Both the position numbers and the translations under genes were made by a program. Below are positions 1 through 64,000 of a stretch of DNA of 64,000 nt, piece by piece (position 1 is the first letter of the stretch; each line of letters starts with the position of its first letter). This DNA comes from Massalongia carnosa (taxonomy: Eukaryota), in assembly GCA_965645245.1 (NCBI GenBank), contig OZ287080.1:744001-808000 (forward strand), in the 5' to 3' direction. Under the pieces are notes generated by a model, which did not search any database, was not told where the DNA came from, and saw only the letters and a program-made list of their open reading frames with translations.

Positions 1-13
1 TTCAGGCCCCGAT

Positions 14-3000: not shown

Positions 3001-3328
3001 CGTCTTTCACGTCAATCTGTTGCAGCATGATGCCAATGACCCCCTCCCCGGGCAGAGACCGGAGCCTAGAGACCCCGTCATCGCCGAAGATGGCCAACGA
3101 GAATGGTATGTCAATAGGGTATTGAATTCCAAGCTCGACCGACGTTTTCAACCCCCGCTTCTGAAATACCTAGTGGATTGGGAAGGGCATCCTTCCACCT
3201 GGGAGCCTTTCAACTATCTCATCAATTGTCAGCAAGTCATAGACGAATACCACCAAGCCTATCCCAATGCGGCCGGCCCTCATCTAAACCCCTGTCAAAT
3301 TCCCCGTTGCCAATGCCACGAGGCATAG
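14..3328 (+). CDS. Gypsy Pol (RT, RNase H, integrase, chromodomain), 5'-partial
   Basis: LRFCVDYRALN, YLDD, ETDAS, YDKELMAI, HHCC zinc finger (AHDS..GH...CHTC), SMDYV/SDRGPQF/TDGQTE, C-terminal chromodomain (EWYVNRVLNS...YLVDWEG...TWEP). Confidence 0.93.
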   Translation: MIEKAKKPSPAYQPLPSRASPHEKEIHLALFKMNKALTLATAVTREELDAYRESKNVDPAPLLPKQYHEFLDVFSKKKSEDLPPRRPYDHAINLKEGTQAPSQALYGMIRTEIEELRRYLDENLAKGFIRASRSHAASPVMFVKKPGGGLRFCVDYRALNAITIKDRYPLPLIAETLHQLIKAKIFTKIDIIAAFNMLRIREGDEELTAFRTRFGLFESLVLPFGLCNGPASFQHFINDTLHEYLADFCTAYLDDILIYSDNELEHEVHVKKILSRLRDAGLQADITKCKFHVTEIAYLGMIVTTEGIKMDPAKVETVVNWPNLVNVKDVQSFLGIANFYRRFVYGFSDIAGPLTNLTKKETEFLWTDKCQLAFEMLKKAFTSDVILRHFDPDRPIIVETDASDYVSGGILSQYDDDGILHPVAYFSKKHNPAECNYEIYDKELMAIVRCFEEWRPELEGSAFPISVISDHKNLEYFASTKQLSRRQARWSEFLSRFDFKIVYRPGKAGGKPDALTRRSGDLPKEGDDTDERRKFQHQTILKTENLDEEVAKSYLRSILLAPAFLDDADIEEAEPQLDEDLIDPDEDISTELLWEQALTRDQFAPEVLGALRNNERHHNRIQLAECEDRDGILYFRNKKYVPRSDRLRLRIIQLAHDSVAGGHPGRSKCHELVNRSYWWPSMHQSIKRFIRNCHTCRRSKPSRQRYQGWLRPLPPPERRWRDISMDYVGPLTPSTFIGITYRYILVVIDRLSKMRHFIPITSMEVEDAADAFYQNVWKLHGLPEAMVSDRGPQFVSDFWQLMCKRLKIDAKLSTGYHPETDGQTERANATMEHYLRAYVNYMQDDWAQWLPGAEFASNNTDSSSILASPFLANFGQHPRMGFEPEEPLPQDLTAQGRANLVAANQFVNKMQDIDTHLRDEMLMAQASYEATANASRRPCPRYFVGDMVWLSTRNIQTARPTVKLDDRNIGPYRVSKVFSNPLIVQLELPDTVKIHPVFHVNLLQHDANDPLPGQRPEPRDPVIAEDGQREWYVNRVLNSKLDRRFQPPLLKYLVDWEGHPSTWEPFNYLINCQQVIDEYHQAYPNAAGPHLNPCQIPRCQCHEA

Positions 3329-6921: not shown

Positions 6922-9900
6922 ATGGCGAGTTCGCTTTCCCTGCAGTTAGCACAGATACGAGTGAAGGGTGTAAATCCTTTAGACCTCAAAGCACAGAAGA
7001 GAGAGCATTCGCGATCCCTGTTATTTGATCCGCGCATTGCAGCTGTTCAAGACTTCGACACCATTTTCCTTCTCTGCAATGAAGGATTCCAGGAACTTTG
7101 CCAGCTCGACACTAGATTTATCCTCTTTTCCCAAACAGTTTTCAGTGAACAGAGTAAATACCAGGATAGGGCGCAGATGACAGTTCAGCAGAATGATCAA
7201 CTGAATATCCTGCTGGAGGACTTCCTTGGTCTCATCGGTAATTGGCTACATCTTAAGCCAGCATTGAAAGCCATCGAATGGCTTGTGAGGCGGTTTAGGT
7301 GAGTATAAGGATTGATGACAGCCACTACTTTCTTCGCAAACATGATTTTTGAGTACTGATAAGGTACTCTGCATAGAATACAGTACGAAAACACCTTATG
7401 TCTGGTCTTAACCTTTCTACCGTTTCACACCACCCAGATTTTCCGAAAATTATTGGCTATCTTACCAGAAAGTCTACCACCAGTCCTCCGGTTCCTTCAT
7501 CCATACATCCGGTCGGTTGCAAATCCGCCACGCCATACCATTGTGTCCACTCTGATACACAACAACTCATTATTTGCTGAGATAAACTCGCGTGTTCTGA
7601 AGGTTTGCAAAGTAGGGCATCATTATCCGGCCCTACTTTCCTTCTGGGCAGCAACAATTACGGAAGGACTTGCTGGGATGTTAGATCAATCACGCTTAGG
7701 CAGATGGGAAGCGCAAAGGCGACATCAAGGGGATGCTATGTTTCGTATTATACCGACCCTGCACGATGGTCTGGGCCTTGAAAATGTTCCAGAACTTCAG
7801 CAGGGATGCTTCATGATTCTCACAATGCTCGCGACAAGAGTGGTGCTGCAAAATGAGGTTTTAGCAGTCCTGATGGAAGCGGTTGCATCTACATTAACAC
7901 GAGCGAGCTCAGCAGGACTCATCTGCCTTGCTTCTTTGGCGCAGCAAAGAGAAGTTGTTATTTTGCCAAACCTGGTTTTGAGGACTTTGCTCAACGTTGA
8001 AAAATTCGACGAGATGATTTTGGTGCTCAAAGCTAGATACAGAGTTGATAGGATAATTCTTGGTGTGATATTAGGTATTCTTGGGGAATTGCACATTGTG
8101 CACAATGTGGAGAGGGTGAGTATTGTGCGATCGTTCATCGAATCTGACTCGATGGATGATTCATTAACCGTTGTTGCCATCAAAGCGATCTTATTCGCAG
8201 CTAGAAATGAAAAAACCAAGCACAAGAAAGGATCAAAACCTAAAAGCTCGTTGATCGACCTACTGCTCAGTCTCGCCAAGAAAGAGAAATTGCGAGAGAT
8301 GATCCAAAGAGCTGTCCAGACATCTGATTTGGAACTGGATGTAAGACTGAAAGAACTAATACCGTTGAACCAACAGTCTCCTGGCCAAAACCATGAGAAC
8401 ATAGAAGTGGAATCCTTAGGCTCAGGTTCTATAACGAAAACCTATGAGGAGGTTGCGCATCAAATTGCCATCAAAATAGTGACTGAAACTAGCTTCCTTT
8501 CGCACTCTGACTCTGATGTATTTGAGAATCTTGCAAGCGCATTCATCCTCGCATCATCGTCAGCAGAGATGACCAATTTTTCTGACCTACCAGTGCTCCG
8601 CAAGCCTTCAATTCTGATTGAACCTTTGTATATTTCATTTTTTATCCGAATATGGTGTGGCGGCTATCCAGCTCCAACTCGCGCCGCGGCTCTCAAAATG
8701 GTAGCGGACTCCCTTGTAAGTCGGGAATTGGTTACGGACCTACAGATCCTACTACCTTACCTACTATACGGGCTGGCCGATCCTGTTCCAACCGTGCGCC
8801 AAGCTTCTGCACAAGTTGTGGCGACCTTGCTCTCAGGTTATAATAATGTTGGGAACGAACGGAGGCGGCTTGAACGTCCTGTCCTTGGCCAAGAGCAAAT
8901 ATACGGCTGGGGGCCACAATCCAGTGAAGTATTGTGGCTATCGGCGGATACAGCCGCTCGATTTCTCGAAGACATTCTAGCATCGAGCCTTGAAGAATGC
9001 TTACTTGATGCTAATCATATTTTACAGCTTGTCTCAAATAGCCTAAGGAGCGTGAAAAGGTCCAAGGCTTCTCAAAATATATTCAAGGAACTCAAAACTG
9101 CCCCTAAGCAGGCAATTTTTGCTTTTCTGTGCAGTCACGTTATCAGCACCCCAATATATACTGTGAAGTATCGTCTCCTGGCAATCTTAAACCAGATCGA
9201 GAAAGTGGGAAGCTTGTCAAGAACAAAGGCCCTCCTGCCAATGTTATCTAGAATTATTGGCATGAATCAGGAAAATTTTAAGGAAATAGCTGATACGGTA
9301 CCTGTCAGCACTCCGGAGCTACTTGATCGGCTATTTGAGGCCATATCGCCAGCTGATCGAGAGGGTATACACCTATTGCAGTCACTCATTAAAGCTGATC
9401 AACTACAGAGATCACATCTGTTTGTACTAGTGGCCCATAGACGTATTCGAGTGATTTGGTCATGTCTTAAGGCCGATCCGCAATTGGTTTTAGCGAACAT
9501 ACTGCTAGAAGAAGCCGCGAGGGAACGGGCAAACAACGATGATCAATGGCGAAGAGATGAAGCTTTGAATACTTTACGAATACTCCCACTTTCGCCCTTA
9601 ATTTTAGAGCATTTCATGGAGAACCTTTCTGCCTCTCGAAAGTGTACACAAGATAAGCCACACGCCACGAAACGCAGACAATCACGGCACGCTGGAAGAG
9701 ATAGCTATACTGATCATAATCCGCAAACTTTGGCGCTTAAGTTGAAGAAATTAGCATTGGTTCTAGAACTCATAGAGTCTAATAATACCAAGAAGCAACC
9801 ACAGCTGATGAAGGGCTTATTCGAGATCATGGATGACTTACAGCAACTTAACAGTCCATCTGGCCTCGATTTGGGATATCTCCAGGTTTTAGCGATGGGT

Positions 9901-12791
9901 AACATTCTGACAATTGTCAAAGAACTACCTGTAAGATTTTCCCTTTCGGTAAAGGGCAAAACGAAGAGAAGCTAAGAACTTGCAGAAGTCATCCCCTATG
10001 GAAATTGAGTATTCTATTATTAAGCCCAATGTGCTCGTTGACTGTCTGAGAACTACTGTTAGCCCTCAGGTACAACAAGTAGCTTTGTTGCTTTTAGCGG
10101 GGCTTGCAAGCCTGGCTCCGAAACTAGTCCTTCATAGTGTCGTACCTATTTTTACCTTTATGGGTGCAACTACTCTGCGACAAAATGATGAGTACTCAGC
10201 TTACGTAGTGGACCAGGTAGGTCAGGGTTGCTATCTCAGTGTCTGAGCTAACATACAAACTTGCAGACGATGGAGTCCGTAATCCCGAGCCTCATAGAAT
10301 CCCTACACATGGAAAAGAATGATACTGTCGTGGGAGCCTTGGATTTGATGATTAGCTTTGTAGCAGCTTTCAAGCACATTCCGGCTCAGCGACAGCTTTT
10401 TCTGTTCAAATCACTTACTGATAAGCTCGGTCCCGCTGATTTCCTATTCGCGATCCTTATACTCCTTTTGGATAGATATCCAGATGACCCAATTGTTGTG
10501 TGTTTTGCTGGCGAGCTTGCTGGCAGTTATGGTGGCGCAGTTCAACTACAGGTAATTCTGTCTTAGGCCTGCAGCCTAGATATACACATTTGACATTTGA
10601 GCAGACGGTAGACAAATTTCTATCCGTGAATCTTGATTCACTAAAGCCAAATCCTTCTATCTCCCGGTACCTAATGACCATCGAGAGATATGGAAGCGCC
10701 GAAGCCGCTATCGCCAGAATACTCCCACTTTTGAGCATGATTTTCCGGGGTAAAAGATTGATACGGACAATGATAGGGATATCAAAAAAGCAAGAGGCGG
10801 ATGCTGTTTTGATGCAGACTTTGTACACTCGTTCATTGGAGCAAATGATCCTGCTTATCACAAGATCCAATCATGACAAGACATGTGTGTCGCCTTACCT
10901 TGTAATGCATCGCTAATACTAACCGCGATCTAGTGCAGAGGACTTGTAATCAGGTTTTAGATTCATTGGTTGGGCTTCTATCGATTTCTGGGCTTGTAGA
11001 TGCACTTCGCACCCTACTTGTAAATGGTGAGGATGAGGTAAGAACTTCGCACATGGAATGAAGGCGCAGCCTAATATTGCTAGGTTCGTCAACAAATGCT
11101 TAGTTCCTTTCACCAACGTTTGCTGGCGAATATAGTCGATTGGCAGGCCTCGCAGAAGGCTTGTATATCTCTACTTCCCCAGCTAACGTCCGTAGTGAGG
11201 GATTCATCTAAATTTCCACTGAAAATAATCGCTCTAGCCTGCGTAGATTGCATTGCAGAAAAATTCGGCAAGAATGATAGTAATACTGTTCTTACAGCAG
11301 CAAAGGTTATTTACAATTGCCAAGAGCAAGGGACTGTGGACCAAAGATTTCGGATTGCATTTCTGCTCTGCCTAGCAACCATGATCGAAGTTCTTCAAGA
11401 CGTGATCCTGCCACTAGTGCCACTGGTCCTTCCAAAGGCGATGGAGTACCTAATTACTAGTATTAATGAAGACCCGAGGGACGGTCAGCTTCATAATGCG
11501 GCATACTCTTCGATATGTGCGATGCTTCTCTATATTCCGTGGATCATTCCAGACAGCGCTTTAGAGCAAGTGTTGCGGATATCATATCAGTCTGCAAATG
11601 GGAGGATGGGGGAGGACTGCGACAACAGCCGTCTTGAAGCTCTTGAGCTTGTTGCAAGACAAGTTAAGCCACAAAAGCTTTTTGCTGCAATGTACCAGTC
11701 CTGGAAAACTGCAACGAGTGAAGGTTCCAAAGTGAGTTTATAGGAAAGCTATATAAGGAGTCACTCTAATTTATATTAGGCTGTCAAAGAGTATCTTGAG
11801 ATACTCTGCCGTGTTGTTGAGCAACAACCGAAACTACTTATTATAAAGCAATCTGAAATTCTGACTAATATTCTGATTCAAGCGTTTGACCTAAGGCACA
11901 TCCAAATCTCGTTGCAACCAAATAACAGGTTTGAACTCAGCGAGATTGAAGAGGCCGAAGCTTTTATATTCAAACTAGGAATCGCGATAATTTACAAGCT
12001 TAATGATGTCACCTTTAGACCAATGTTTATGAAAATATGGGAGTGGACGGTCAACCTCAGGTCTGAGAAAGGAGTGACGACATGGACATATCGCCGCACA
12101 ACCACGTATGGCTTCCTCCAGATGTTTTTCGGAACCTTCAAAGTAAGGCTTATAGCTCCATAACCTTTTTCGGAGCTAAAATAGTTAATTTTTATAGTCT
12201 GTTGTTACTAGTTATTCAGATATCATACTGGACGACGCAGTGAGTACTCTACAAGACGTCTTGATACAGGACGAAGAGTCAAAGTTGTTATGGAAAACGG
12301 TTATCACTACGTTACAAAAGTCGTTCGAAAGTGATCAAGACGGTAAATGTCACAACCTGAGAAAGACGCGGGTAAAAGACTTATTGTTTTTAGAATTTTG
12401 GCAGCTGCCTTGCCACTTTTCCCGAATATCGGAGACGCTGCTATATCAACTGAATCATGCTTCAGAGACATCTATGATTTCCGAAGTCATTCCAGCCATA
12501 ACTGAGCTAGCGATCGCGGTAGACTCAGCGAGTCATCATAAGGCGCTCAACTCGGCGATATTACAATACATGCGGTCGGACAATGTATCTATTAGATTGG
12601 CTGCGGTGCAGTGCGAGTACAGCCTTACAGTACGAATGGGAGAAGAGTGGCTTGCGTTCTTGGCAGAGATGCTACCTTTCATCAGCGAGTTACAAGAAGA
12701 CGACGATGAGTCAGTCGAGCAAGAAACGCAAAAATGGATTGTAAAGATAGAGGAAATACTCGGTGAAAGTTTGAGTCCCATGCTTTGTTGA
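6922..12791 (+). CDS. UTP10: U3 snoRNA-associated protein 10 (HEATR1/BP28). Exons 6922-7298, 7377-9930, 9986-10216, 10267-10551, 10605-10884, 10934-11037, 11084-11731, 11780-12142, 12198-12342, 12394-12791
   Basis: N-terminus MASSLSLQLAQI...SLLFDPRIAAVQDFDTIF...KAIEWLVRRFR. BP28CT motif YKLNDVTFRPMF. C-terminus GEEWLAFLAEMLPFISELQEDDDESVE...IEEILGESL. Nine GT-AG introns keep frame; spliced length 5385 nt = 1794 aa + stop. Confidence 0.95.
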
Positions 12792-12904
12792 TTGTTATCT
12801 TATAATGAAATTTCGAGTTACATCAAAACATTTCATACAGGAATCAAAAATTAAAAATATATAAAGACATATATCGTATAACGAAATTAAGTCGTGTTAT
12901 AATG

Positions 12905-14330
12905 TATGATGATGATGATGATAATTCTTATTCCGATGTGGTACCGGCCGAAGGCCGGCCCATGCGGGCAAAGCTATCTAAGTTATGTTACATGGAAAAC
13001 CTTTTTCAGGTGTAAAAACCATATCCCTTGATACCTGTCCGATGTGACACCAGGTCGACGTCGGACAGGAGACGCAGAGCGAAAATCATGTGAGAACTGT
13101 GACGCCTTGTGAGATAAGAAGGAAAAGAGGAGTGAAACTACTGTTAATTGTACAATAGTGTAGATGCCAGTGAGAATTGGGTCAGTAGACCTGTTTTCAT
13201 TAGCCAAGCAGTTAATATCTTTAGAGTTTTTGATGTTTCGGTCAGCTGTTGATAGTTGTTCGTGCCAGCGGCGCAAAACATCTGTTCTCTATTGTCAATA
13301 AGTCTACAGAACATAATTACATGTTCTGGAGTTTGTCTGTGCCAGCCACATGGGCAGGCCGGTGAGGTGACGGCGGGGACCCGTCGCTGGTAGAGGAAGT
13401 CAGCTAGACCGATCTTACCGGTGCGGATCTGTGTTGTCAGGGCGCTTTCTGCCTTTTTTAGCAGCGTGTGTATTTTCAGTCGTTTTTTGCTCAGTGGGAC
13501 TGATTGCGCTATGGAGGGTTCGGTGACGCGATTTTGATATGCGCTCCACGAGTCGTTCCAGACTTTCAGCTGTCGTGCTTTAATTGTCTGCATTTGTTTT
13601 TGACGAGCCAACGCTACTACGGAGACTTCGCGGAGATGCGCTGGGGAGGGGTCGGACCATGGTGGGTGTGCTTTGGGTGGTTGAACGATTTTTGCGTCTA
13701 TCAGTAGTTTTTTGGCCCAGGTGTGCTTCAGCTCTCCCGGAGTGGGTTTTTGAAGGCGTTTGCGACCTGCCTTGCCTTGAAGTTTGTTAACTATTTTGCT
13801 GCATGCGGAAGAAATGACCTTCGATTGACCTCCGGCTCGGAGTCGATGTCTGGCCTCCGCCTGTAGCGTGTCGAGGTGTACATCTATGGGTGCTATGTAT
13901 GTCTCTGCTTCAAGAACTGGAATGGGAGTGGCTTTAAAGGCACCGGCTATGGTGCGAAGGCAGTTGTTTTGCATAACGAAGAGCTTGCTCGTTGACGTTT
14001 TTGACTTTTTGACTTCTTTGGGCATGTGCCATACGGTTGACCCGTATGTCATGACCGGACGCACTACGGCGCTGTAAACTTGCCTTGCTTTGGTGAAGGT
14101 GGCACCCCAAGTCGATGTGGAGATTTTTGTCAATGCCATGGATTGTTTAACCATTTTCTTTTGCGTTTTGCGAACGTGCGGTCCCCATTTCAATTTGGTG
14201 TCAATTTGCAAGCCTAAGACTCTAATGTCCGTTTTTGGTTCAATTTCGGTGCTTGCAATGTTGATAGATGCAGCCATATTGAATCTTTTGGGATTTCTAG
14301 ACAAGTGAATGAGTTCGTACTTCGTCGGAC
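12905..14330 (-). mobile_element. Tad1-like LINE, 5'-truncated 3' fragment with (CAT)n tail
   Basis: ORF 13144-14304 (RVLGLQIDTKLKW, YGSTVW, CPCGWHRQTPEHVIMFC zinc finger), 3' hairpin block at 12941-12969 and (ATG)n at 12905-12922. Confidence 0.9.
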
Positions 14331-15148
14331 TAAGAATGATAAAATAGAGTTGACATCTCCTTCGTGAAGTCTCTATCCCAGTTTTCGTTCATCTCACTGG
14401 TGCGTTTTACGGCCCAAGACTATTGATGAATTCTACGATTGGGGTGAACGACGTCCCTTTCGCCCAGGTCAAACCCAGTTTACTCCTTAAGCATATATCA
14501 AGGGCGAGTCTAGCCGTAGCCCATGCGCCGGCGAACCGACGGGGTCTCGTTACGAGCGAGATAGACATTCCCTGTTCTATATACACCGACATGCGCATAC
14601 TGTCCTCTCGGGCTATGCAGACGGTCTCCGTACGGTGGCCGCCATTGCATACCACGCCTCACGGGTTTTTTACGCCCACTTCGCGTTATTCATAAAGGTC
14701 TCCCGTTTGTGAACCGACCATGTCTCGCTGGGATTTCGACCACTATACTCCTGACCAGGCAGTATAGTATCGATTTTCCGTCCCTACTAACCAAAACGAG
14801 TCGAGGACAACTCGGAGGGGTGCTCGTTTGAAATTCGTCTATTAGCTCAGGGCCTAGACTGTTATCAATTAACGGGTTCCTCGTATATTGCCCTCTTCTT
14901 GTCCCAAGGGTGTCCTATTTGATGACTAGGTTGCCTCCACCATCCCCGGTACGACTCCGGTTCGGGCCGTGTTGCTCACGGTAGCCATCAATCGGATGGT
15001 TTTCATAACCCAAATCCCTTGTATCGTGTAGGGTGTGACCCTACACTATGTGTCTATATGTTTTATTTCTTTCAGCCGGAGGGCTCCGTGTTGTAGACGA
15101 AGGAGACCCGTGTGATAGACATAGCTGACCCGTGTCGTACGTCTTTAG

Positions 15149-15856
15149 CTCTCAGCCGATGACTGCATGAAAGGACTTGAACCTTTAAGAGTATGACCGA
15201 ACGTTGTTAACGAGGTCTATGAAAATCTTATTAACGAGGTCTTCGAGAACAATATTAACGAAGTTCCGCTGAACTCTTTTCATTCGTTTTGTGATCCATC
15301 GAGGTCTACCCGTGTCAAATTCACACCATGCCCGTGTCAAAATACATTATTTTCAGCTGATGACTGCTAGAAAGGACTTGAACCTCTAAAAATATGTACT
15401 CCGATATTAACGGGGTGCAGATCTGTCTTAACGAGCCCCCGCAGAACCCCCTTCACAGGGACGTGTTATTGATTTGTGACTGTGTTTTTTGTGACTGTGT
15501 GTTTGGTGACTGTGTGTTTTTTGACTGTATGTTTGTGACTGTGTGCTTTGTACAACGTGTGATTGATGACTATGTGTTTTGTGACTCTGTGTTTTCCTCG
15601 ATTTTATTTAACAGGCCGGGCCTATTAAATGGGATATTGTTATTCTGCTCCGAGATGGAGTTTTCTTGAGGTGACAGCATTCGCCCCGGTGCCTTTACGC
15701 GTTCTGTTGATCCCAGCTGATGACTGCATGGGGAGACTTGAACTCTCAGGAGCTAGAACGCGTGTCGACTGTGCCCGGGTGGGGGATGATGCGGCTCCTT
15801 TGGTCCATATCTTCTTCCAGCTGATGACTGCATGAAGGGACTTGAACCCTTAGAAG
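15149..15856 (-). ncRNA. Candidate structured RNA / B-box motif, 4 copies: 15149-15191, 15348-15394, 15711-15751, 15814-15856
   Basis: Minus-strand pattern P1 - 5-bp stem - TTCAAGT - 5-bp stem - CATGCAGTCATCAGCT - P1', with compensatory changes among copies. The repeat is certain; an RNA function is inferred. Confidence 0.45.
15470..15592. repeat. Degenerate ~15-bp tandem repeat (TTTGTGACTGTGTGT-like), ~7 units
   Basis: Recurring GTGACTGTG with ~15-bp spacing. Confidence 0.8.
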
Positions 15857-16033
15857 CATGGTGCAGGGACGCGCGCATTCTACCCCCCGGCGGTTGGCCT
15901 TCGTATCCTCTTCCGTACGTACGTCTGCGACGCGTGTGCACGCGTTAAATTAGCATTGTTTTGATGCGAAAAGATAGGAGCAAATCTATGTTTGACGGTC
16001 GCCCCACGGTGAGGCCTTTGGCGTCTCCGTGGT

Positions 16034-16296
16034 GAGGACCGATGGTGTAGAAGGAGGAGGACCGATGGTGTAGAAGGAGGAGGACCGATGGTGTAGAAGG
16101 AGGAGGACCGATGGTGTAGAAGGAGGAGGACCGATGGTGTAGAAGGAGGAGGACCGATGGTGTAGAAGGAGGAGGACCGATGGTGTAGAAGGAGGAGGAC
16201 CGATGGTGTAGAAGGAGGAGGACCGATGGTGTAGAAGGAGGAGGACCGATGGTGTAGAAGGAGGAGGACCGATGGTGTAGAAGGAGGAGGACCGAT
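16034..16296. repeat. Perfect 23-bp minisatellite ACCGATGGTGTAGAAGGAGGAGG x11 plus partial units
   Basis: Unit starts 16038, 16061 ... 16291; no mismatches seen. Confidence 0.97.
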
Positions 16297-19200
16297 CGGG
16301 CAAGTCTACATAATAACTACATGGAAAACCTTTTGAGGAAGAAAAACCAAGTAATCCGATACTTCTATGAATACTCTCCGAGTCTCCGTCGAGAGATCTT
16401 CCTAAAGAACAGTTGACCGATGAAAAGTTAAAGAAAAGAATCGACGTATTTAATCGCCAATTGTCAATGATATAAATGCTGTGCTGCCAGTGAGAACTGG
16501 GTTGGTAAGCCGGTCTTCATTAACCAAGCGGTGACTAGTTTCATCGCTCTAGATGAGTCAGTAATGAGTCGATAATTATTTGTTCCTATGGAGCGTAACA
16601 TTGAATTTCTGTTACTGTTGAGTTTGCAAAACATGATTACATGTTTCGCGGTTTGTTTTGGCCAGCCACATGGACACTTCGGTGTCAAGACGTCGGGAAC
16701 GCGACGTCTAAATAGGAAGTCGGCTAGACCTATCTTTTCTGAGCGTATCTGAATTGTTAGAGCGCTTTCTGCTTTGGCTAAAGTTTCGTGTAATTTGATG
16801 CGTTTTTTTGTGAGTGGGGCTGCTTGTGCTGGAGTAGGCGTAGATGTGAGGTTCTGATATGATTTCCAAGAGGTCTGCCATGCGTCTGTATATCGTTGTT
16901 TTTATTTTGCGATTATTTTGCCTTGAACGGCACGCGCTTCTTGGATGTCTCGAGCTGTATTTATGGGGTTTCGGCCCATGGTGGGTTCGCTACCGGCATC
17001 AGGCTTTTTTGTGTATCCGATGTTATTTTCTTGGCCCATGCATATTTCAGCGTTCCCGGAGTACTCGCAGGAGCTAGCTTTCGTCCAGCCCGTCCTCTGA
17101 GTTTGTTTGCAATGGAGTTGCATGCATTGATGATGAATTTCTTTTGACCTCCCTGACACAAGCGATGTCTAGCCTGAGCCTGAAGTTGATCTAGATGTAT
17201 ATCAATTGGGGCTATGTACGTTTCCGCTTCCAGTACCGGTATGGGAGTCGCCTTAAATGCCCTAGCTATAGTTCGTAAGCAATTATTCTGTATGACGGCT
17301 AGCTTGTTTGAGATGCCGTTCGATTTTTTTATGTCCTTTGGCGTGTGCCATAAGGTAGAACCATACGTCATGGCCGGACGGACTACGGCGGTGTATACTT
17401 GGCGGGCTTTTGGAAAGGTGGCGCCCCATGTGGAGGTAGAAAATTTTGTCAGTGCCTTGGATTGTTTTGTCAATTTTTCCTGGATCTTTCTGACGTGCGG
17501 ACCCCATTTCAATTTTGTGTCGATTCGAAGTCCTAAGATTCTAATGTCCGTTTTTGGTTCTATGATGCTGTTTTCTATTCTAGTGATAGTAGACATGTTG
17601 AATTTCTTCGGATTTCTTGACAAGTGTATCAGTTCGTACTTTTTCGGTGCAAAAACTGATCCGTGTCGAGTAGCCCATTTTTCGCATTTCTTGTGAATTT
17701 CCTCCAGCGTTTTGCAGTTTTCTTCCGTGCTTTTCCCATATGCTAGTACGTTTATGTCGTCTACGAAACCTAAGGCGCTCGTGTTTGTTCCGGGTCTTTC
17801 ACATATGTCTAACAGGTCTGCGTTATAGAATAGATAAAGGACAGGGGAAATAGGAGAGCCTTGTGGTATTCCAGTTCGTAGTTCGAATATGCCGGTGACT
17901 CGGCTATATATTGCTGGCGTGGTGCTTCTTTCGTTTAAAAAACTGTCTACCCAGTCAGTAATCCATTTTGGGATTTTCGTGTTATGAATTAAACGTCGAT
18001 GTGACACTGTATCATACGCTCCTGCTACGTCCATGCTTAATAGAGTAGCTATTTTGTCGTTGCCTTGTCCCCATACTGTGTGAATTTGTTCAGTTAACAA
18101 TTCCAGAGCAGTTTCGGTTGATCTTCCTCTTCTGGCCCCCATCCGTGAGTCCGGTAGGAGTCTGTGGGTTTCCGCTAGGTGAGTAATTTTCTTGGACATA
18201 ATAGATTCCATAACTTTGCCGAGCGTGTTCAGAAGTGCTATGGGGAAATAGGCGTTCGGAGCCGTATAGTCGTCTTTGTCTATCTTTCTCAGTGTGATTG
18301 TATTTGCGGTCTTGAATGCGCGTGGATGATATGCCTGATCTATGCATGCTTGAAATAAAGGAGTTAGTAAATCGGACGGCTTTTCGGAGCACGCCTTTAC
18401 AATTCTGTTGGCTATTCCGTCCGGACTAGGGGCCGTGTCGGGTTTGAGTCGGCGTATCGATTCTGTCACTTCCGATCTGGTTACGATTATGGGACAGTGG
18501 GGAGGGCTAGGATAGAAAGAGCCCTCTATATCGCTGAGGTCAGCAGGAGGGGCGGGTGGGAAGAATTTCTGTTTAAGCATATCGGTTTTTCCTTCGAATG
18601 TGGATGCTATTTGCCGTCTTTGATGAGGTTAGGCATTTTTGGAAGTTCTCTTGTCTTTTCACTTTTGTCTTTTGCCCATTTGGCTAGTCGCCATAATCCC
18701 ATGGATGATTCAGTGGCTTTTTCTATTTCCTTGCGAAAAGATAGTCTTTTAGCTTTTTGAATCACTTTTTGTTTTCGGTGATTGGACTTCATGTATGTTA
18801 TCCAGTCTCAGAGGTCTCTGGAATTGGTCCAGACTCGTCTGAGCCTACGTGTTTCTTTCGTAATTACACTGCAATCATCATTCCAAAAGGGTTTAGCGTA
18901 CTTACTGGGTCTGGCCCATGGAACGGCGGCATTTATGACTTGAAGGAATTTTTGGATCGATACGGTGTACGCGTCAATTTCGGCGTGAGAACGTGGGGTA
19001 GTAATGGGGGGAGCCTGTTTTTCAGCTTCCCTCGGTTTTTCCATGTTCAATAACTTCCATGCTCTACGCTCGATGATTGTTTGAGGCTCACTGTCAAGTG
19101 TTATTCGGGTCGAGATTGGTATGTGATCAGATGACTGATTGAGTTCAGGTCTTGACATGCAGTGTTCTAATCTTTCGGTTAAATTCTCCGACATGAATAC

Positions 19201-21321
19201 AAGGTCGATTGTGCTGAACGATTGTCTAGCCTCCCATGTGATAGTGCCTTTTGGTAGCGTTAGTGATAGACTGGACTCTTCAATTATGTTTAACAGTTGA
19301 TCTGCGCCCGCATGTTGCGTTGTTCTGGACGGATCGTTCCAAAGGGGATGATGTAGGTTGAAGTCGCCTAACAAAATGTGATTTGATCCTGTCGTTCACT
19401 GACGTTTTACAATCGGTAAAGTTGACGGACTGTCTATAGAGGAATAGGAAGCCGGGGAAGGATTGTACACGTTATGAACGTGAATCACTTCTGATGTTTC
19501 TCCAATTTTTGTGCGTATTATTAGGGTGTACATGTCTGCCGACGGGAATTCTACTTCCCAACTATCGGGATCAATTGAGTCATTGATGTAGAAAACATAC
19601 TCTTGTGTCTCTATTTGGACGATATAATAGGTGAAATCCACTTTGATGAGAGCTTAATGTGGTAGGAGCAAAGGGATTGCGCCAGGGTTCTTGAATAGCG
19701 ATAATGTCATAATCCTGAGTGTTCAGGTCTGCTAAGAGGGGTAACATAGTACTCACTGTCATTTCTGACGTTATACTGTAGTATGGAGAGAGAGTTTGTG
19801 TTCCTCATAAGACGTCCATGGAGTTGACTTGAGAGGTCGTGGGGGCGGCACTAGTTGACGCATTTGCATTGAGGATAATGGGAGCTGTAGACTCACCTCG
19901 GGGCCTAATTGGTGGCCTACCTACGATTGGTTTTGCGAGAGCCTTCGCCATGTTCTCTGGGTTCATGATACCGGTGTCAGCCTAGGTTGTTCCGATTCTT
20001 GGAGGAATGGGAGGCGAATCCGGAGGTGTTACGATTTTCCGCTTTTTGCTGCTTGCGTTGTTTGTGTTTGTGTTTGTGTTTGTGTTCATGATTTCGCCTT
20101 GAAAGCTGAACGGGGCTGGTGCGAGGGCGACAACTGAGAAAAATGGGACCCGATTTTGCATGGCCTTGTCTACTTTACGTTTTTCTGATTTCCTGATTTC
20201 GCAAGATGTAGACCATGCTTCATGTCCTTTCTCATTGCATGCAGCACATCTTCGGTATCTACCCGTTGTTTCCATGTTGCATTCTGCGCTAGGGTGGCCC
20301 CCGGCGCAGTAGCCACAGGTGGTAGGGTTTGGGCATGAGCGACCAATGTGACCGTATTTGTGACAGTTGAAGCATTGCGTCATAGTGCATCCCTTGGTGA
20401 ACCTTTCGCAGTCTTTGATTTCGTAGTCGACAATGAGGCCTGCGGCTATGATCCGGTTGGCCGTTTCGGCGGTTGCGACTTCCATGTGTAGCGTATAGTA
20501 CGTCTTTTACTCTCTTATAGCTTTAATGGACCAGGCTATTTTCTTGATATTCAGGTCTGGATGCAGGCGTGCATTAGCGGTCTTCAGGTATCCTATGGCT
20601 AGTGATTGGTTCGCAGTTTTGATGTGTTCAACCTTGACCCCGTTTACTCTGACAGAGTACGTTCGTGTCTTTATTGCCGCAGATTCGGCTATCTTTTGGG
20701 TCCATTCTGAGTTCTCTTGTAGAGCCTTTTTAGCCTCTGGAGATTCGGTGTGAATTTTCAGGTCTCCACTGATAAGCCGTGACACTCCCCAGATCCCTTC
20801 CATCTCTGCTTGTAGTGTCTCCACGAGATCTTTAGTGGTCATGTTCTTTAGTTTGTCTTTGTCCGTTTCTTCAGATACGATGATGGTGATTTCCATAGCC
20901 TTTCGCACTTCTTGAGGCGAGAGCTCATTGCGTTTTAGTGGTGCGGTAGGTTTAGTGCGACGTGGATCGGTGAAGCCTCGATGGCCTGGCCTCTAATTGC
21001 AGCAGCGGCGTAGTTGTTTGCTTTTGTGGTTGGTTTTGTGCTTTCGATGCGAGCAAGACTTTGCTGAATTTCTCTTAGGGTGTTGTTAAGGGTGGACGGT
21101 GTTTTATCGTTATCATTGTCAATATTCCTTTGATTTAGGAGAAATTCTCTCACTTCCTTCAGGACCTCGGTCCCCTTCGGTTCCCCCCCATCTCCTACTC
21201 CTGTGAGGTAGTCCATGATTCTAGACAGCAGATGATCCCTCTGCTGTGCGTGTGCGACTGCGAATGAGTTTGTTTATTGAGTGTTCATATTTCAAGATAA
21301 CCATTATGACTATATTATTAT
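16297..21321 (-). mobile_element. Near full-length degenerate Tad1-like LINE (ORF1 ~21288-19810, ORF2 ~19808-16464) lacking its own 3' terminus
   Basis: ORF1 CCHC knuckles (QCFNCHKYGH, CGYCAGGH, CAACNEKGH); APE (IAIQEPW, GDFNLHHP, TIDLVF, SDH); RT (PQGSPISP, FVDD); C-terminal CPCG..H..C. Multiple stops and frameshifts. Confidence 0.93.
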
Positions 21322-21468
21322 GTCGTGTTATAATGAATACTTGACTCGTAAAAATTGTAAAATGTTCATCTGCAATTGTCTTAATTAAGTCTGAAGTGAC
21401 AGTGATTATAAACTGAAAGTAGTATAATGAAATGTACAGTCGGGTGTAGAAAGTTACCGACCGGTGTC

Positions 21469-22054: not shown

Positions 22055-22719
22055 TGACGATGATAATGATGATGATTTTTATTCCGATTTAGTACCGGCC
22101 GAAGGCCGGCCCATGCGGGCGAGTCTATCTAGTTGTATAGTACATGGAAAACCTTTTGAAGAAGAAAAAATATGCAATCCTGTGTCCGGCCGAGGACCCT
22201 CTGGGTCCAAGCCGTGTGCTCTATAAAAAAACCTTTGACCCAAGACAAGTATAAAAAATAAAACAAAGCATGCCTACTGTTAGCAGTATAGATGCTTTGC
22301 TGTCAGCGAAAATTTTAACAATAAACCTATCTTCATTAGTTATTTTATGACTAATTTTATTGCTATAGATGACTCAGTGATTAATCGATAGTTAATTGTG
22401 CCTATCGTGTTTAGTAGATTTTGTCTGTCACGATTCTACACGGCACGACCTCGGCACTCGGCACCGCCTAGGGTAATATTAGATGGAACATGCAGGCACT
22501 TTCGATTTCGTTCCCGTAGCTACTAGAAGATTCCATGACGACTATACCATATGGGTACTAGCGCAGTAGAGCATATATAGGAGCAGGTTCTGGTTGTCGA
22601 TAGTAATTTTCCTTCTTCATCTTTATTGTATTCGTTTCTAGTGTCCCTATAACTTGTCTCTAGGTAGATCATAATATTGTCTTTTGTCGTTGAGTTTGTA
22701 AAACATGATCACATGTTTT
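22055..22719 (-). mobile_element. Third Tad1-like LINE 3' fragment (continues at 38819-38890 after nested insertions)
   Basis: (ATG)n tail and the same 29-bp hairpin block at 22092-22120. Joining 22719 to 38824 restores ...HKQTAKHVIMF. Confidence 0.85.
22426..22676 (+). mobile_element. Solo LTR (251 bp) related to the 233-bp Gypsy LTR
   Basis: Starts TGTCACGATT and shares the TTCATCTTTATTGT...TCTAGGTAGA U5; TSD TTGTC on both sides. Confidence 0.85.
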
Positions 22720-25004
22720 TGTAATGGGCTACGAGACCAGTAAGCTAATCATGAGCGACACTGATCTCGAAAGGGGAAATGCTCAGCGTGAGATAGCTAC
22801 TACGTGCTAGTCTCCGAGAGTATACGTGATCCAAAGAACTAATGGATGTAGAAGTGCTCAGACCAAGAGATCTCGTCCGAGACCCAAACGTAGGTTGTTC
22901 ATAGAATAAAGACTAATTGCTAACGAATACTACAGGATTCGTTCTGGTATTTATCCCAGTCACCCCAAGCCTATAGCCTTGGGAGCCTTGGAACCTTAGG
23001 AGCCTTGCAACCCTCTTCTGACCTTATCGTCTTACATCTAACCATCCCTCAGGATCCATCTACGAACTCGGCGTTCGCTGGATCATCTAGTCAGCCTCGA
23101 GCAGCCTTTTAGACCTTCCCTTGCAAGGTAGAACACTTCTACCTCCGGCTAGATCCCGCACTACATTGCTAGCCTGCCTCTAAACATAACGTAACTCACT
23201 GGGCAACGGGACTAAGTAATTCCGAACTCATCACTTTTTGACTACTCTAGATGATAAAGCCTTCATTACATACATTTTACATACAAATTCAGCTTCAGAC
23301 ATCACAGTAGATTATATTCATCTTTTTGAAACTTTATAATCATGGGTGTAGGTAAAAAAACCACCTCCCACAAGACCTCCATTCCTTCATGTTTTCACCC
23401 CACCTCCACCTATCAACAACGATTACAGTCGGCCTTTTTGGCCTGGAAACAGGCCGATGGAGCTCTTTCCATTACGAAGGCAGCTTTTCTATATGATGTT
23501 TCAAAGTCTACCCTCCATGCCCGCATTCAGGGTCGTCAATCACGATTTACGTCTGATCAAACTAAACAACTGCTGACCCCCGAGGAGGAAGACGCTTTGA
23601 AGAACTGGGTTTTACAACTGTACGCCTGGGGCTGGCCTGCTAAAATAGCTCAGCTACGTCAGATGGCCATAGAATTACTACGAGCAAGGGGGAATCATAC
23701 TGTGCTAGGAGTCAATTGGCAACAGTATTTTTTACATCGTCATCCCGATCTGCAGGCTAAATACAGTCGCACACTAGATCAAGAACGATTATTCGCTGAG
23801 AATGAAGAGATATTTCAGCACTGGTTTGACCTTTTCCTCTCCATGAAAGAAAAGCACGGAATTCTTGATGAAGACATCTACAACATGGACGAAAAGGGAT
23901 TCATGATGGGGGTAGCTGCTAGTGCTAAAGTAGTAATTTCTAAGCACGAAAAGCAAGCCTTTTCAGCACAGTCAGGTAATCGAGAATGGTTGTCATTGAT
24001 CGAGGCCATTTGTACTACCGGTCGAAGTTTACCTCTTTTCGTCATCTTCAAAGGAGTCAACAAGCAAAAGGCCTGGTACGATGCACTGGAGGACATTGAC
24101 ACTGAAATAGCTACCAGCGAAAACGGATGGACAGACAATGAACTAGGTCTCGATTGGTTGAAAAAGTGGTTTGAACCTGCTACTGCAAAATATCTACACG
24201 GTGAATATTGACTTCTTATAGTAGATGGTCATGCTTCCTATATTTCTACCGAATTCATCAAGTTTTGCAACGAAAAGAAAATCATTCTTTTGTGTCTACC
24301 TCCACATACTACCCATATGTTGCAACCTCTGGACGTGAGTGTTTTTGGGCCCTTATCACGGGAGTACAAAAAACAATTGGAGGTCGTCACCCGATTCAAC
24401 GTCTGTTCAGTGGACAAGGTGGATTTTCTGAAGATCATTCAAAAAGCAAGAAAAGAAGCAATCAACACAAAAAACGTGCTGACTGCATGGAGAGCAACCG
24501 GATTAGTACCATACAATCCATCATCAGTTCTTCAAAAACTCACTAATAAACAATCGGTGTTGCGAAAGACTGATAGCATCATCACCACTGTCACGATTCC
24601 ACCTTTCGCCTTTAGGAGCTAAACCTAATCGAGCACCTACGGGTCGGATAACGAGATTCACGAGATAGCGCGGAAAACTCTTTCGCGACCGTACTGCATG
24701 AGGGCAAGGGAACGCGTTGGTATATAGGGACGGGTCAGACCTTTCGAGTCTTTTTTTCTCTTCATCTTTATTGTTTTCGTTCATGGCGTCCCTATGACTA
24801 GCCTCTAGGTAGACCGTAACATTACAATAAAGATCAAACTTCAAACTGTTATCCTATGTGAAGGATATAAAACAATTCACCTGACAAACACGAAGACACC
24901 AGATATTGATACCGACACCGAGAATTAAACATCGTAGAGACGAGACGACCACTGACACTGAACCCAAGATACCAGACACCGATAACCAGATACCAGCTTA
25001 TAAC

Positions 25005-26261
25005 ATGGCACGATCAACCGGGACCGAGGTCCCAAGACACCGGGACTCGATAATCCCCGAGACTAGAGAGACAGAGGACGAACTAGAGGTAACGGAGCCT
25101 CTGATGATTATAAACCTCCGACAATTGAAGGCATGGATGGAGCACGACCCTCAGGCCGTGTCCGACATGCTTCAAAACCTGAAGGGAGCATACAACGACT
25201 CCGTTGAACGAGGTAACCGAGCTATTGATATGGCTGAGGGATTCCAGACCAGAATGAACCAGTTGGAGGGCATGATGTCCTACCAGAAAGAAGAAATAAG
25301 AGAATTACAAGGACGGGCCCCCGTGGCCAGCACTGAATTGAGCCGAGAACAGACGCGAGAGCCGTCTCGCCCACGAACCCCATCCCCTTCCCGTAGCAGC
25401 CGTCGCAGCGACGGCGGTAGGAAGAGGTCGATGAAACTGCCTGACCCGCCTATCTTCACCGACGGAAAGGAAATCTCCATAGACCATTGGCTGACAAAGA
25501 TGCGGAGTAAACTAGCAGCCAATGATGACCACATGCCGTCGGAACTACTCAAGAAGGCATACGTGGAGAACCGGGTAGGAGGAGAAGCAATGGGACACCT
25601 AGAACCCCGACTTCGAAAAGGCGCGATGAAGCCCTTTCTGACGGCCGAGGAAATGTTTGACCAATTGGAACGCACATACGGCGACCCCAATCGAAAACAA
25701 ACTGCGATGAACGACTTTCGGTATCTTCGGCAAGGAAGCAAGGATTTCAACACCTTTTGGGCTGAGTTTCAGCGTCTGGCAGCTGAGCTGGACCATAACG
25801 AGGCTACACTAATTAGCGAGTTGAAGCACAAGCTTTCTTGGGGAATGAATCGGCAATTGGCCACCGGCGCCGAGGCACCGACCGACCTGTATGAGTTCGC
25901 GCATAAGTGTCAGCGCTTGTATCAGGACCTCAAGGACTTGGACCGAAGCAAGGCCAATATGGACCGTTATGCGGAAAGTAAAAGGCCCAGCACCACTGCC
26001 TCGAGTTCTAGCGCCCCGACCACGACGACCACAACCTCCACCACCGAGACCTATGTCCCTCCCCGTCACGCCATCACGGCCTCGACCCCCAGGCCCTCTT
26101 CCTACATGACGGATGAAGAAAAGGAACGATTGACCAGGGAAGGTCGTTGTTTCTTTTGCAAGGAGCATGGACATTTGTCCAGAGATTGTGAGCTGAAGAG
26201 GAAGAGTCGGCCAGCGAAAGTGCAGAAAATCGCTGAAATTGATGACTCGGGAAAAGAGTGA
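25005..26261 (+). CDS. Gypsy Gag
   Basis: KLPDPPIFTDG, LRQG, zinc knuckle CFFCKEHGHLSRDC. Confidence 0.92.
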   Translation: MARSTGTEVPRHRDSIIPETRETEDELEVTEPLMIINLRQLKAWMEHDPQAVSDMLQNLKGAYNDSVERGNRAIDMAEGFQTRMNQLEGMMSYQKEEIRELQGRAPVASTELSREQTREPSRPRTPSPSRSSRRSDGGRKRSMKLPDPPIFTDGKEISIDHWLTKMRSKLAANDDHMPSELLKKAYVENRVGGEAMGHLEPRLRKGAMKPFLTAEEMFDQLERTYGDPNRKQTAMNDFRYLRQGSKDFNTFWAEFQRLAAELDHNEATLISELKHKLSWGMNRQLATGAEAPTDLYEFAHKCQRLYQDLKDLDRSKANMDRYAESKRPSTTASSSSAPTTTTTTSTTETYVPPRHAITASTPRPSSYMTDEEKERLTREGRCFFCKEHGHLSRDCELKRKSRPAKVQKIAEIDDSGKE

Positions 26262-29200
26262 CCTCCATCAAAGACGCAGATGGAGGTGAACCAGTGTTGA
26301 TTTCGTCGAGCTGTTTACCTGGTGATTTGTTCACCGATGAACCCCTGGTCATACAATGTAGACTGGGCAATAGCGAAGAAATAAAAGTGATGGGTCTATT
26401 GGACACCGGTGCCACTGGGCATGCTTTTATTGATGAATCAACAGCGCGTGAAGTTTGTGAAAAGCTTCAGATCTCCCCTCAAAAACTGACAAGACCGAAA
26501 CCAGTCAAAGGTTTCGACGGTAAACGAGGTAAAGACATTACGCATGCCATTTACCCTACCCTGACCGTACAAAATCATAAGGAAACAATAGCCCCTATTC
26601 TAATCACGCAGCTGGGGCAACACAAGATGATATTGGGAAAACCATGGATGAGAAAGCATGGAGTGATTATTGACATGGCCACAGACAAGATAACTTTCTG
26701 GCCTGGTCATTGTTCTCATCCTGGAGCTCCTCAGCTGCCCAAGGAGGAAAAGATGATGATGGAGTCCGAAGGGGCTAGAACGATCATGAAAATACTGAAA
26801 CGACCCGAAGAGGCAAGAACGGACACGAAGGAATCAGAGCGGACTAGTCCAGATCAGCTCAGTTCGTCAGATTTGTTAGCTAACAAAGCTGACGTAGGGC
26901 TATCAGGAAGACCAGCAGACTCTGGAATCGAGGATAAGCCGACTCCCGAAGATGAGCCGATAGAAATGGCGATGATAGGGGCTGCCGCGTACCGACTGCT
27001 CTCCAAACAAAAGAATGTCGAGTTATTCGCCATCTCTTTAAAAGACATCGAGTACCAATTGAATAAGGAAGACCAGCCACCCACTGACCCGAAGACGGTA
27101 GTTCCCTCAGAGTACCACGAATTCCTAGATGTCTTTTCCAAGACAGCATCTGACACTCTGGCACCTCATCGAACGTATGATCATAGGATTATTCTGGAAG
27201 GAGACAAAGATCACGGACATAGTCCGCTTCGGAGCATGTCACAGAAAGAATTGGAGTTCGTCAAGAAATACCTCGAGGACAACCTTCGAAAAGGATTCAT
27301 CGAGGCCAGTCACGCAGCGTGTGCTTCCCCTATTCTGTTGGCCAAAAAGCCGAACGGAGGCCTGCGTTTCTGTGTCGATTATCGAAGGCTAAATCAACTG
27401 TCAAAAAAAGACCGCTATCCCATACCTCTGATAGAAGAAACTCTGGCACAGCTGAAGGAAGCTAAGGTCTTTTCGAAGATTGATATTCGGCAAGCATTTC
27501 ACAAGCTCAGAATGGCCATAGAGTCTGAAGACCTGACGACGTTCAACTCTCGTTTTGGTGCCTATAAATATAAGGTACTCCCATTCGGACTCTCTGGCGG
27601 ACCAGCTTCCTGGCAACACTACATCAACGATGTGTTATTCGACTATTTGGACAAGTTCTGCACGGCTTACCTGGACGACATCCTGATTTATAGCAAGAAC
27701 CTGAAGGATCATCGGGAGCACGTCCGATTCGTTCTGATCAAACTTCGGGAAGCGGGACTACAAGCAGACGTGGACAAATGCGAATTCCATGTGACGGAAA
27801 CCAAGTACTTGGGACTGATCATTAGCGTCGATGGCATTCGCATGGACCCAGCTAAAGTCAAGGCCATCCAGCAATGGGAAATCCCAACTTGTCTACGTGA
27901 GGTCCGTTCGTTCATTGGCTTTTGCAACTTCTATCGACGATTCATCAGAGGCTTCTCGAAAATCGCCAAACCCCTGAACGCACTGACGAAGAAAGAACGA
28001 ATCTTTGAATGGACCTTAGCATGTGAAAAAGCTTTTCGGACCCTGCAGAAACAAATAGGCGAAGCCCCAATTCTGATACACTTCGACCGAGACAAGCAGT
28101 GTTACTTGGAAACCGACTCTTCTGACCACGTCAATGGTGGCGTGCTTTCCCAAATGGGGGATGACGGAGAACTTCACCCGGTAGCGTTCTTCTCCAAGAA
28201 TATGAGCCCTGCGGAATGCAACTACGAAATCTACGACAAGGAACTGCTGGCAATCATCCGCTGCTTTGAACAATGGAAACCGGAACTGGAAGGCACTGAT
28301 CTACCAGTGAAGATCTTCACTGATCACCGAAGTCTAGAGTATTTCATGTCCACCAAAAAGCTGACCAGAAGACAGGCTCGCTGGGCGGAGTTCCTCTCGG
28401 AGTTCAATTTCGTCATCACCTATCGCCCGGGCAAGAAAAACGAAAAAGCAGACGCTCTGACCCGAAGGCCAAACGATAAACCTCAGAACGAGGAAGACGA
28501 ACGACAACAGCATCAGCTCCAAACGCTGCTGCCCTCGGAAAGACTAGAACTGCAACCCATCGAAGAAGCAACGGAATCAGATGAAACTCCTGCCCTTGAC
28601 GACACTGACACTACCACCGATCCCGATCCACAGCCTTTGGACGAAAAGGTAAAACAGGAAAACCTCGAAGATGAACTCTGTACGAAGATCAGAAAAGCGC
28701 TGACAGACGACGATACTCCTGCGGACAACACCTTGCCAGACACAAAGAATTGTACGGTGAAAGATGGACTGCTATATAAGCGAAAACGCTTATGGGTCCC
28801 GGACAACAAGGAAACAATTCTCGAAGTCGTACGGCAAATTCATGACCAGATAGCGGTTGGGCACCCCGGAATAGCAAGGACCATTCAGACGATCTCTCGA
28901 AATTACTACTGGCCGAATATGGGCAAAGATGTTCGCCGCTATGTTCGCAGCTGTCACGTTTGCAGACGGGCAAAAGCACCAAGGGATAAATACAACGGGC
29001 TACTGAAACCCTTGCCCATACCTGACAAGCCATGGTCAGACATCACCCTCGACTATGTGACCGGGCTCGCCAAAAGCAAGGAGCAGTACGACGCCATTCT
29101 GATGGTTGTGGACCGGATGTCCAAGGAAAGACACTACATTCCATGCACATGTAGTGACGAAGGAACAATTGCCGAGTCTACAGCGAAGCTGCTCATCGAC

Positions 29201-63859: not shown

Positions 63860-64000
63860 ACAAAAGAGGTGAATGAGAAACGAGGAACGGAGCACCACCT
63901 GAACACGGGTGAGGTGTTCGTAATGTGACGAGGCGGCAACGGGGGCCTATTCAGGTGGTGAAGGTGGTGGCATTGCTAGCTATGACTATACTAGATAGAC

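Follow-up and report, generated by a model that had tools for sequence, protein, structure and literature searches.

The window analysed here is a stretch of 64,000 nt of the Massalongia carnosa assembly GCA_965645245.1 (contig OZ287080.1, positions 744,001 to 808,000), in which the only evident piece of a host gene is an 870-aa open frame on the plus strand (7363-9975) that matches U3snoRNP10 (Utp10). The window otherwise consists of mobile elements, with Gypsy elements at 2-3328, 24885-30121 and 58638-63946, Copia elements at 32183-38240 and 40466-42811, and a Tc5-like element at 45565-46713. On the minus strand, a non-coding element lies between two LINEs, here called LINE A and LINE B, and the open reading frames beside the element contain the Exo_endo_phos_2 and RVT_1 domains of non-LTR retrotransposons. 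LINE A, the element and LINE B together are one 8.4-kb insertion within a 14-nt target-site duplication, a length that was reached in none of 200 shuffles. Read along the minus strand, the insertion is made up as follows:

21322..21335, minus strand: upstream copy of the target-site duplication, CATTATAACACGAC, 14 nt
16297..21321, minus strand: LINE A, with ORF1 (CCHC knuckle) and ORF2 (endonuclease and reverse transcriptase)
14330..16296, minus strand: the whole non-coding element, 1,967 nt, multi-copy, with a sharp boundary at 14330
12905..14329, minus strand: LINE B, 5'-truncated, beginning inside ORF2 (..PTKYELIHL..) and ending in a 3' UTR and (AUC)n tail of its own
12891..12904, minus strand: downstream copy of the target-site duplication, CATTATAACACGAC, right after the LINE B tail

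LINE B is joined directly to the 3' end of the element. The 3' UTR of LINE A ends in ..gcccg, and because LINE A is without a 3' terminus, the tripartite form in the window requires the assumption of either an internal LINE jump or read-through of an older composite locus. LINE B (12930-12970) and another LINE, LINE C (22095-22120), have in common a 3' UTR hairpin, GGCCGGCCTTCGGCCGG, and after it an (ATC)n tail; LINE A has neither.

Anatomy and covariation of the module

The element contains four copies of a module, a 45-60-nt RNA structural unit consisting of a basal helix (P1), a T-arm mimic (P2) and either a bulge or a mini-hairpin. P1 is variable in sequence, with at least 5 bp in every copy and up to 12-17 bp in many, and P2 is near-invariant, with a 5-bp stem, a G-C closing pair and the loop UUCAAGU. 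The preliminary description, which was made from the letters of this DNA, had reported the four copies on the minus strand, and their positions, number and strand were confirmed: a degenerate pattern gave four matches in the window at 3 or fewer mismatches versus none in 100 shuffles, and a search of the window with a covariance model (R1, built from 49 distinct copies) gave exactly four matches, all on the minus strand, with E-values from 4e-17 to 3e-15 and the next best match at E 0.22. A pattern match at 28216-28276 was a false positive inside a Gypsy ORF, and was removed before alignment. The four copies are:

15814..15856, minus strand: module copy 4, E 4.2e-17, the best-folding window copy, with P1, T-arm and mini-hairpin all in its minimum free energy (MFE) structure
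15711..15751, minus strand: module copy 3, E 3.1e-15, inner stem GAGAG/CUCCC with one A-C mismatch
15344..15397, minus strand: module copy 2, E 1.1e-15, P1 of about 10 bp with one bulge, inner stem with one G-U
15149..15191, minus strand: module copy 1, E 1.4e-16, P1 CUCU(U)/(G)AGAG, T-arm AAAGG-UUCAAGU-CCUUU followed by CAUG and CAGU-CAUCG-GCUG

As had been claimed, the sequence of the outer stem is unlike in each window copy yet its pairing is kept throughout, and the single A-C mismatch in the inner 5-bp stem is that in copy 3. Folding-energy z-scores of the window copies (0.11, -0.93, -0.15 and -1.11) are no better than those of shuffled sequence. Among 40 variable positions listed over 1,741 nt in contigs from the sequencing runs, two fall within modules (15344 and 15348, in the outer stem of copy 2), which does not depart from expectation.

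The described likeness to a tRNA T-arm in something that is not a tRNA was upheld, with the 5-bp stem, the G-C closure and a UUCRANY loop all present and no tRNA match found; the UUCAAGU loop is equivalent to the B-box sequence, and fits the tRNA T-loop bases U54 U55 C56 R57 A58. Unlike tRNAs and the heads of tRNA-derived SINEs, the module has no cloverleaf and no A box, the T-arm occupies the junction's 5' side, and the parent RNA measures 0.4-2 kb. The 16 nt that follow the T-arm had been described as a conserved linker, and while these are near-invariant (partly by design of the scan described below), this stretch is probably itself a 4-bp mini-hairpin, CAGU-CAUCA-GCUG (P3), which in the predicted fold gives a three-way junction with P1 and the T-arm and would stack on P1. 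The alternative model, a conserved 16-nt bulge, appears less likely than the mini-hairpin, which is present in the MFE structure of 5 of the 8 copies folded. The outer pair of the mini-hairpin is C-G in 47 of 58 copies, U-G in 3, G-C in 2, U-A in 2 and other in 4, with the two G-C swaps coming from copies outside the pattern selection; this single covarying pair (4 cells) gives modest support for P3. The pair described as a U-G closing the outer stem is U-G in 50 of the 58 distinct copies, but the G can pair instead with the C of CAGU, and in such a fold the conserved U may be a junction base and the conserved G a base of the mini-hairpin. It was likewise mostly true that the spacers between copies differ, except that conserved boxes flank each module, CUCGUUAAUACUGG before and CAACACGGGC after, and these can pair with each other (CUCGU with ACGGG). 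A pairing between the linker and UGCAAG upstream was rejected, as it is not conserved.

Metagenome contigs were scanned with a pattern which fixed 23 bases (those of the loop, some of the linker and the last G) and left the stems free, and this identified 35 further loci, while the same pattern had no matches in viral and prokaryotic collections. The near-invariance of loop and linker in the metagenome hits is partly ascertainment, since these bases were fixed by the scan pattern. With looser matching, the window and the 35 metagenome loci yielded 49 distinct 61-nt copies, in which the loop TTCAAGT (partly fixed by the scan pattern) is invariant except for C22, and the G19-C27 pair is invariant in 49/49. 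In these copies 95.5% of the P1 and P2 cells are paired, versus 82.1 ± 0.9% in shuffles, and there are 108 double-change cells versus 33.8 ± 8.9, a number reached by 0 of 500 shuffles; controls with slid stems gave 45-73% pairing. An enlarged set of 91 model hits contained 58 distinct copies. In these, 95.9% of the P1 and P2 cells pair (shuffles 85.4 ± 0.6%), and double-change cells number 124 (shuffles 46.6 ± 8.6, with none of 500 reaching 124). Both stems covary across these 58 distinct copies, which supports the earlier claim of selection on structure, and the homologues neither lose the pairing nor vary like codons, an outcome that again favours structure. With regard to the strand, the 522 cells of P1 and P2 in the 58 copies contain 43 G-U versus 12 A-C mispairs, and the 29 less mutated copies contain 29 G-U versus 2 A-C. 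This excess of G-U over A-C indicates that the functional strand is, as the preliminary description had it, the minus strand of the window; this is also the sense strand of the LINEs.

Neither the module nor its parent RNA had a match in Rfam 15 or in the literature searches, in agreement with the module having been called undescribed. Nothing in Rfam 15 matched the motifs at E<=10 (window positions 14000-17000), and there was no match in 7 loci at E<=1; within the same limits there was no match to the Rfam tRNA model or to the hammerhead, twister, pistol, hatchet, HDV-like, hairpin and VS models, and ARAGORN predicted 0 tRNAs in the window and 0 in 16 loci. The motif sequence was in no paper found by the literature search, and with the terms as used this returned only the reports on MINE of Magnaporthe and no later description. 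Several candidates were tried and rejected. A box C/D snoRNA on the plus strand (CUGAUGA) has no Rfam snoRNA match on the motifs, its C/D box is not conserved, and the asymmetry of G-U and A-C favours the minus strand; when inspected by eye as a hammerhead, the same plus-strand CUGAUGA has no helix II, GAAA is missing in copies 3-4, and copy 1 reads CCGAUGA. Descent of the whole unit from a tRNA was also rejected, as the likeness is not conserved. A weak match to SpR10, a streptococcal sRNA model (14771-14814, minus strand, E 0.013, 24.8 bits versus a gathering score of 50), coincides with a conserved hairpin in block B (see below), and was judged to be due to chance.

The parent element and its insertions

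While the motifs are structured RNA modules as first described, they are not free-standing, but internal to a 2-kb LINE-mobilised non-coding retroelement. In the window and in the other loci this is laid out as a repeat leader, the modules, blocks A, B and C and an exact 3' end, and in the window the parts besides the modules are:

16034..16296, minus strand: 5' leader, a 23-nt C/T-rich tandem repeat (11.4 copies), with 28-31-nt repeats at the same place in other loci
14903..15041, minus strand: block A, a conserved multi-branch domain with 42 predicted pairs, 19 of them compensatory (11 sequences)
14330..14800, minus strand: blocks B-C and the 3' end, a domain closed by a long-range helix with 118 predicted pairs, 48 of them compensatory (8 sequences)

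From the consensus structures of block A and blocks B-C it follows that the whole element RNA is predicted to be structured, beyond the modules. Across loci the element is 0.4-2 kb long, with one to four modules in its 5' half and with 5' ends that are truncated to varying extent, and the minimal element (L008) has one module, block C and the 3' end, with blocks A and B absent. Contigs from four runs show the region 14330-16040 to be multi-copy (3018 contigs from X1, 72 from X3), and past 14330 the sequences differ in runs X3, X6 and X7. The 3' end reads ...cauucuuag in the window, and ...CTTGG(C) in 6 soil loci/window and in 9 JAABU loci.

The LINE family of the window was found by blastx directly downstream of the element and on the same strand in 18 of the 35 metagenome loci, and any other arrangement in 0/35. 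Of the 17 loci without a LINE hit, 12 have less than 1 kb of sequence after the last module, and the other five (L003, L006, L023, L025 and L026) had no LINE by blastx with at least 1.3 kb downstream, so not every copy is demonstrably a chimera. L025 does run on into CCHC zinc-knuckle sequence, as seen by eye. The LINE starts at a different point at nearly every locus, anywhere between ORF1/endonuclease and the final 110 residues of ORF2, while the 3' end of the element is constant; the LINE of L008 has an RNase H domain in addition. Direct repeats abut the 5' boundary of the element in three of the seven loci tested (L001 and L013, 13 nt each, and L021, 11 nt), and the second copy of each lies about 300-430 nt past the end of the LINE ORF similarity, with the L013 chimera interrupting a Gypsy ORF exactly at the repeat. 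Among the same seven loci no target-site duplication was found in L002 and L034, L019 was ambiguous, and L027 had too little sequence. Short GC/GGC overlaps, noted by eye at two junctions (the window and L007), fit microhomology.

The genomic copies of the element RNA were made by a reverse transcriptase belonging to one LINE family. Four features together are the hallmark of template switching by this enzyme: the RNA 3' end is constant, the points of LINE entry vary, 5' ends are truncated, and target sites are duplicated. Synthesis begins on the LINE RNA and switches to the element RNA at its exact 3' end, ...CUUGG(C), and the resulting chimera of LINE and element is inserted with a target-site duplication.

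Three contigs (L003, L024 and L026) represent the same locus, which has one good and one degenerate module and no LINE downstream by blastx. A fungal Zn2Cys6 transcription-factor gene lies about 0.9 kb upstream of this element copy, a candidate solo or source copy.

Known systems and possible roles of the module

The closest parallel is MINE of Magnaporthe, which according to the accessible part of PMC2104539 consists of the WEIRD RNA and a 5'-truncated MGL LINE, includes tripartite chimeras with 14-bp repeats, and has reverse transcriptase template switching as its accepted origin. The same text describes WEIRD as having no reported relatives in other genomes and no known function. Like MINE, the element described here is a non-coding RNA copy of about 1-2 kb with a constant 3' end, joined to a variably truncated LINE on the same strand and with 10-20-bp duplications, and it also has a tripartite form with 14-nt repeats, although that in the window has a LINE on both sides, unlike what that part of the MINE report describes. 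Also unlike WEIRD as presented there (PMC2104539), the element belongs to a family found in 35 metagenome loci, and it has a predicted fold and the T-arm module, neither of which is reported for WEIRD in the same source. The three published 20-nt WEIRD/MINE primers, the only three compared, matched the element with 6 mismatches of 20 at best, as did shuffled primers. The element is MINE-like by its architecture. Chimeric retrocopies of U6 with L1, and of other snRNAs with LINEs, are known in mammals, as cited in PMC2104539, and the element resembles U6-L1 in that a full RNA 3' end is fused to a variably 5'-truncated LINE by template switching, but differs in that the partner is a large RNA with repeated modules and not a known snRNA.

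A parallel for the module itself is box B of brome mosaic virus (BMV), an RNA virus, which as far as the consulted part of PMC4083346 describes it matches the tRNA T-psi-C loop, has the viral 1a protein as its partner and is needed for recruitment of the RNA to the replicase. In both cases a parasitic RNA presents a mimic of the T-psi-C loop at the end of an extended stem-loop, a comparison which is one of analogy and implies no homology. The modules are kept under structural selection in the source RNAs, and we lean towards the reading that they are part of a structured non-coding RNA mobilised by LINE template switching, in which, by analogy with box B, they would act as RNA-level recognition or recruitment elements that mimic the tRNA elbow. 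Candidates for the binding partner would be a LINE-encoded protein or a tRNA-binding host protein; such binding would bring the element RNA into the LINE particle or keep it there, with the repeated copies of the module adding avidity.

Other explanations have been considered for the RNA and for the module. The parent RNA could be a housekeeping non-coding RNA of the host, such as an RNP scaffold or enzyme RNA, with genomic copies that are by-products of LINE template switching comparable to U6-L1. The strong and deep structural conservation over the whole RNA fits such an origin, as does the copy in L003/L024/L026, which lies beside the transcription-factor gene without a blastx-detectable LINE, and a host RNA was proposed for WEIRD by the MINE authors themselves (accessible part of PMC2104539). 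We think this unlikely, as the number of modules varies from one to four, blocks A and B are dispensable in L008, the 5' leaders are unlike between families, the copy number in run X1 is very high, and the RNA matched no Rfam family. The opposite possibility, that the region is the LINE's own UTR with the promoter monomers of an autonomous element, would account for the tandem units and for the fact that wherever a LINE was found (18/35 loci) it was always of the same family, and tandem promoter monomers are present in mouse L1. It is highly improbable given that the LINE start differs at nearly every locus while the element end is fixed, that LINE A (16297-21321, with ORF1 and ORF2) has no module and no similarity to the element, and that LINE B and LINE C carry 3' UTRs of their own which are different.

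The remaining explanations concern what the motif does. It could act as DNA, with GGTTCAAGTCC, which we take to fit the B-box consensus, serving as a TFIIIC-bound B box, either in an internal Pol III promoter or in an extra-TFIIIC insulator in TE-rich chromatin. G-TTCAAGT-C is invariant and the copies are repeated, and the sense strands of L007 and L022 (elements of about 1.2 kb) are without any run of four or more T, all of which agree with this. Against it, P1 is outside any B box, yet covaries with an asymmetry of G-U and A-C that is explained only by an RNA strand; an A box (TRGCNNAGTGG) would be expected 30-60 nt upstream of a B box, but for 57 copies the best upstream matches did not exceed those on the downstream side or in shuffled sequence; transcription set by a B box in the modules, which are 300-450 nt into the element, would lose the 5' leader that the copies keep; and the element runs about 10 nt beyond its terminal T run, a run of T4-5 about 10 nt before the element end being seen in the window and in L014 and L035 but missing from L007 and L022 (in L014 and L035 the only T5 runs are 14-62 nt before the 3' end). 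We regard a role as B box as rather improbable. A mimic of the T-arm stacked on a helix also resembles minimal substrates of RNase P/Z, and with the modules being in tandem this would suit processing signals, or self-cleaving ribozymes, through which unit RNAs are released from a precursor, as the preliminary description had proposed. That proposal was not supported, since modules with both flanks are uncut in many independent reverse-transcribed insertions, which argues against efficient processing or a ribozyme role; in addition, no ribozyme or tRNA model matched the window (E<=10) or 7 loci (E<=1), the spacers contain no recognisable unit RNA, and by eye the plus-strand CUGAUGA of copy 3 is without other core elements of a hammerhead. 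There is little probability left for it. As for a peptide repeat, GSSPFMQSSA, the spacing of copies 1-3 by multiples of three is as a coding sequence would have it, but the copies are covered only by stop-bounded frames of 53-69 aa, the changes are compensating pairs across stems and not at third positions, and most module spacings in other loci are not multiples of three, so that a coding role is almost certainly wrong.

Taking the modules as recruitment elements of a LINE-mobilised RNA, we tentatively raise a wider claim, namely that there may be a widespread ascomycete family of large folded non-coding RNAs of up to 2 kb, which are preferred acceptors for LINE template switching and use the modules as recruitment handles. 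Such an RNA family would amount to a 'template-switch SINE', and in a bolder version the folded 3' domain would be catalytic and join itself to the LINE RNA. If the ascomycete family of hitch-hikers is real, the WEIRD/MINE phenomenon gets a structural and evolutionary definition beyond Magnaporthe. What is new is a MINE-like architecture in a lichen-associated genome and 35 metagenome loci, together with its defined 3' end, its conserved multi-domain fold and its repeated, covarying module, where the partner RNA of LINE-made chimeras in fungi was previously from one species, as WEIRD in Magnaporthe, going by the accessible part of PMC2104539. An 'odd RNA' has now become a testable RNA family, with a covariance model that can be used in the annotation of fungal genomes, in which these elements are otherwise left as unclassified repeats. 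It can now be asked what binds the module, whether the LINE reverse transcriptase captures the RNA through it, and whether large structured RNAs can exist as parasites of template switching.

Repeats and short motifs within the element

Some further features of the element concern its repeats. The 23-nt leader repeat ends in ..CACCATCGG, and this resembles ..CCACATCGG of the LINE UTR. The spacer between modules 3 and 2 contains a 15-nt tandem repeat (ACACAGTCACAAA-like, 8.2 copies, 15473-15595), which is polymorphic in length, with contigs of X6 and X7 having one extra 15-nt unit after 15531. The sequence ACGCGT, which is MluI-box-like, occurs two to three times in the leader upstream of the modules (about 15935-15965, minus strand), and is also present in the leaders of L007, L014, L022, L025 and L035 and in P1 of L005/L008, forming the base of P1 in some. 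Finally, eleven loci (L001, L002, L011-L013, L019, L021, L027-L029 and L034) have their modules in a strict 183-bp tandem, with two to three copies and one diverged copy, and in this family the flanks have a very high A+T content and numerous C-to-T and G-to-A changes, a pattern that resembles repeat-induced point mutation.
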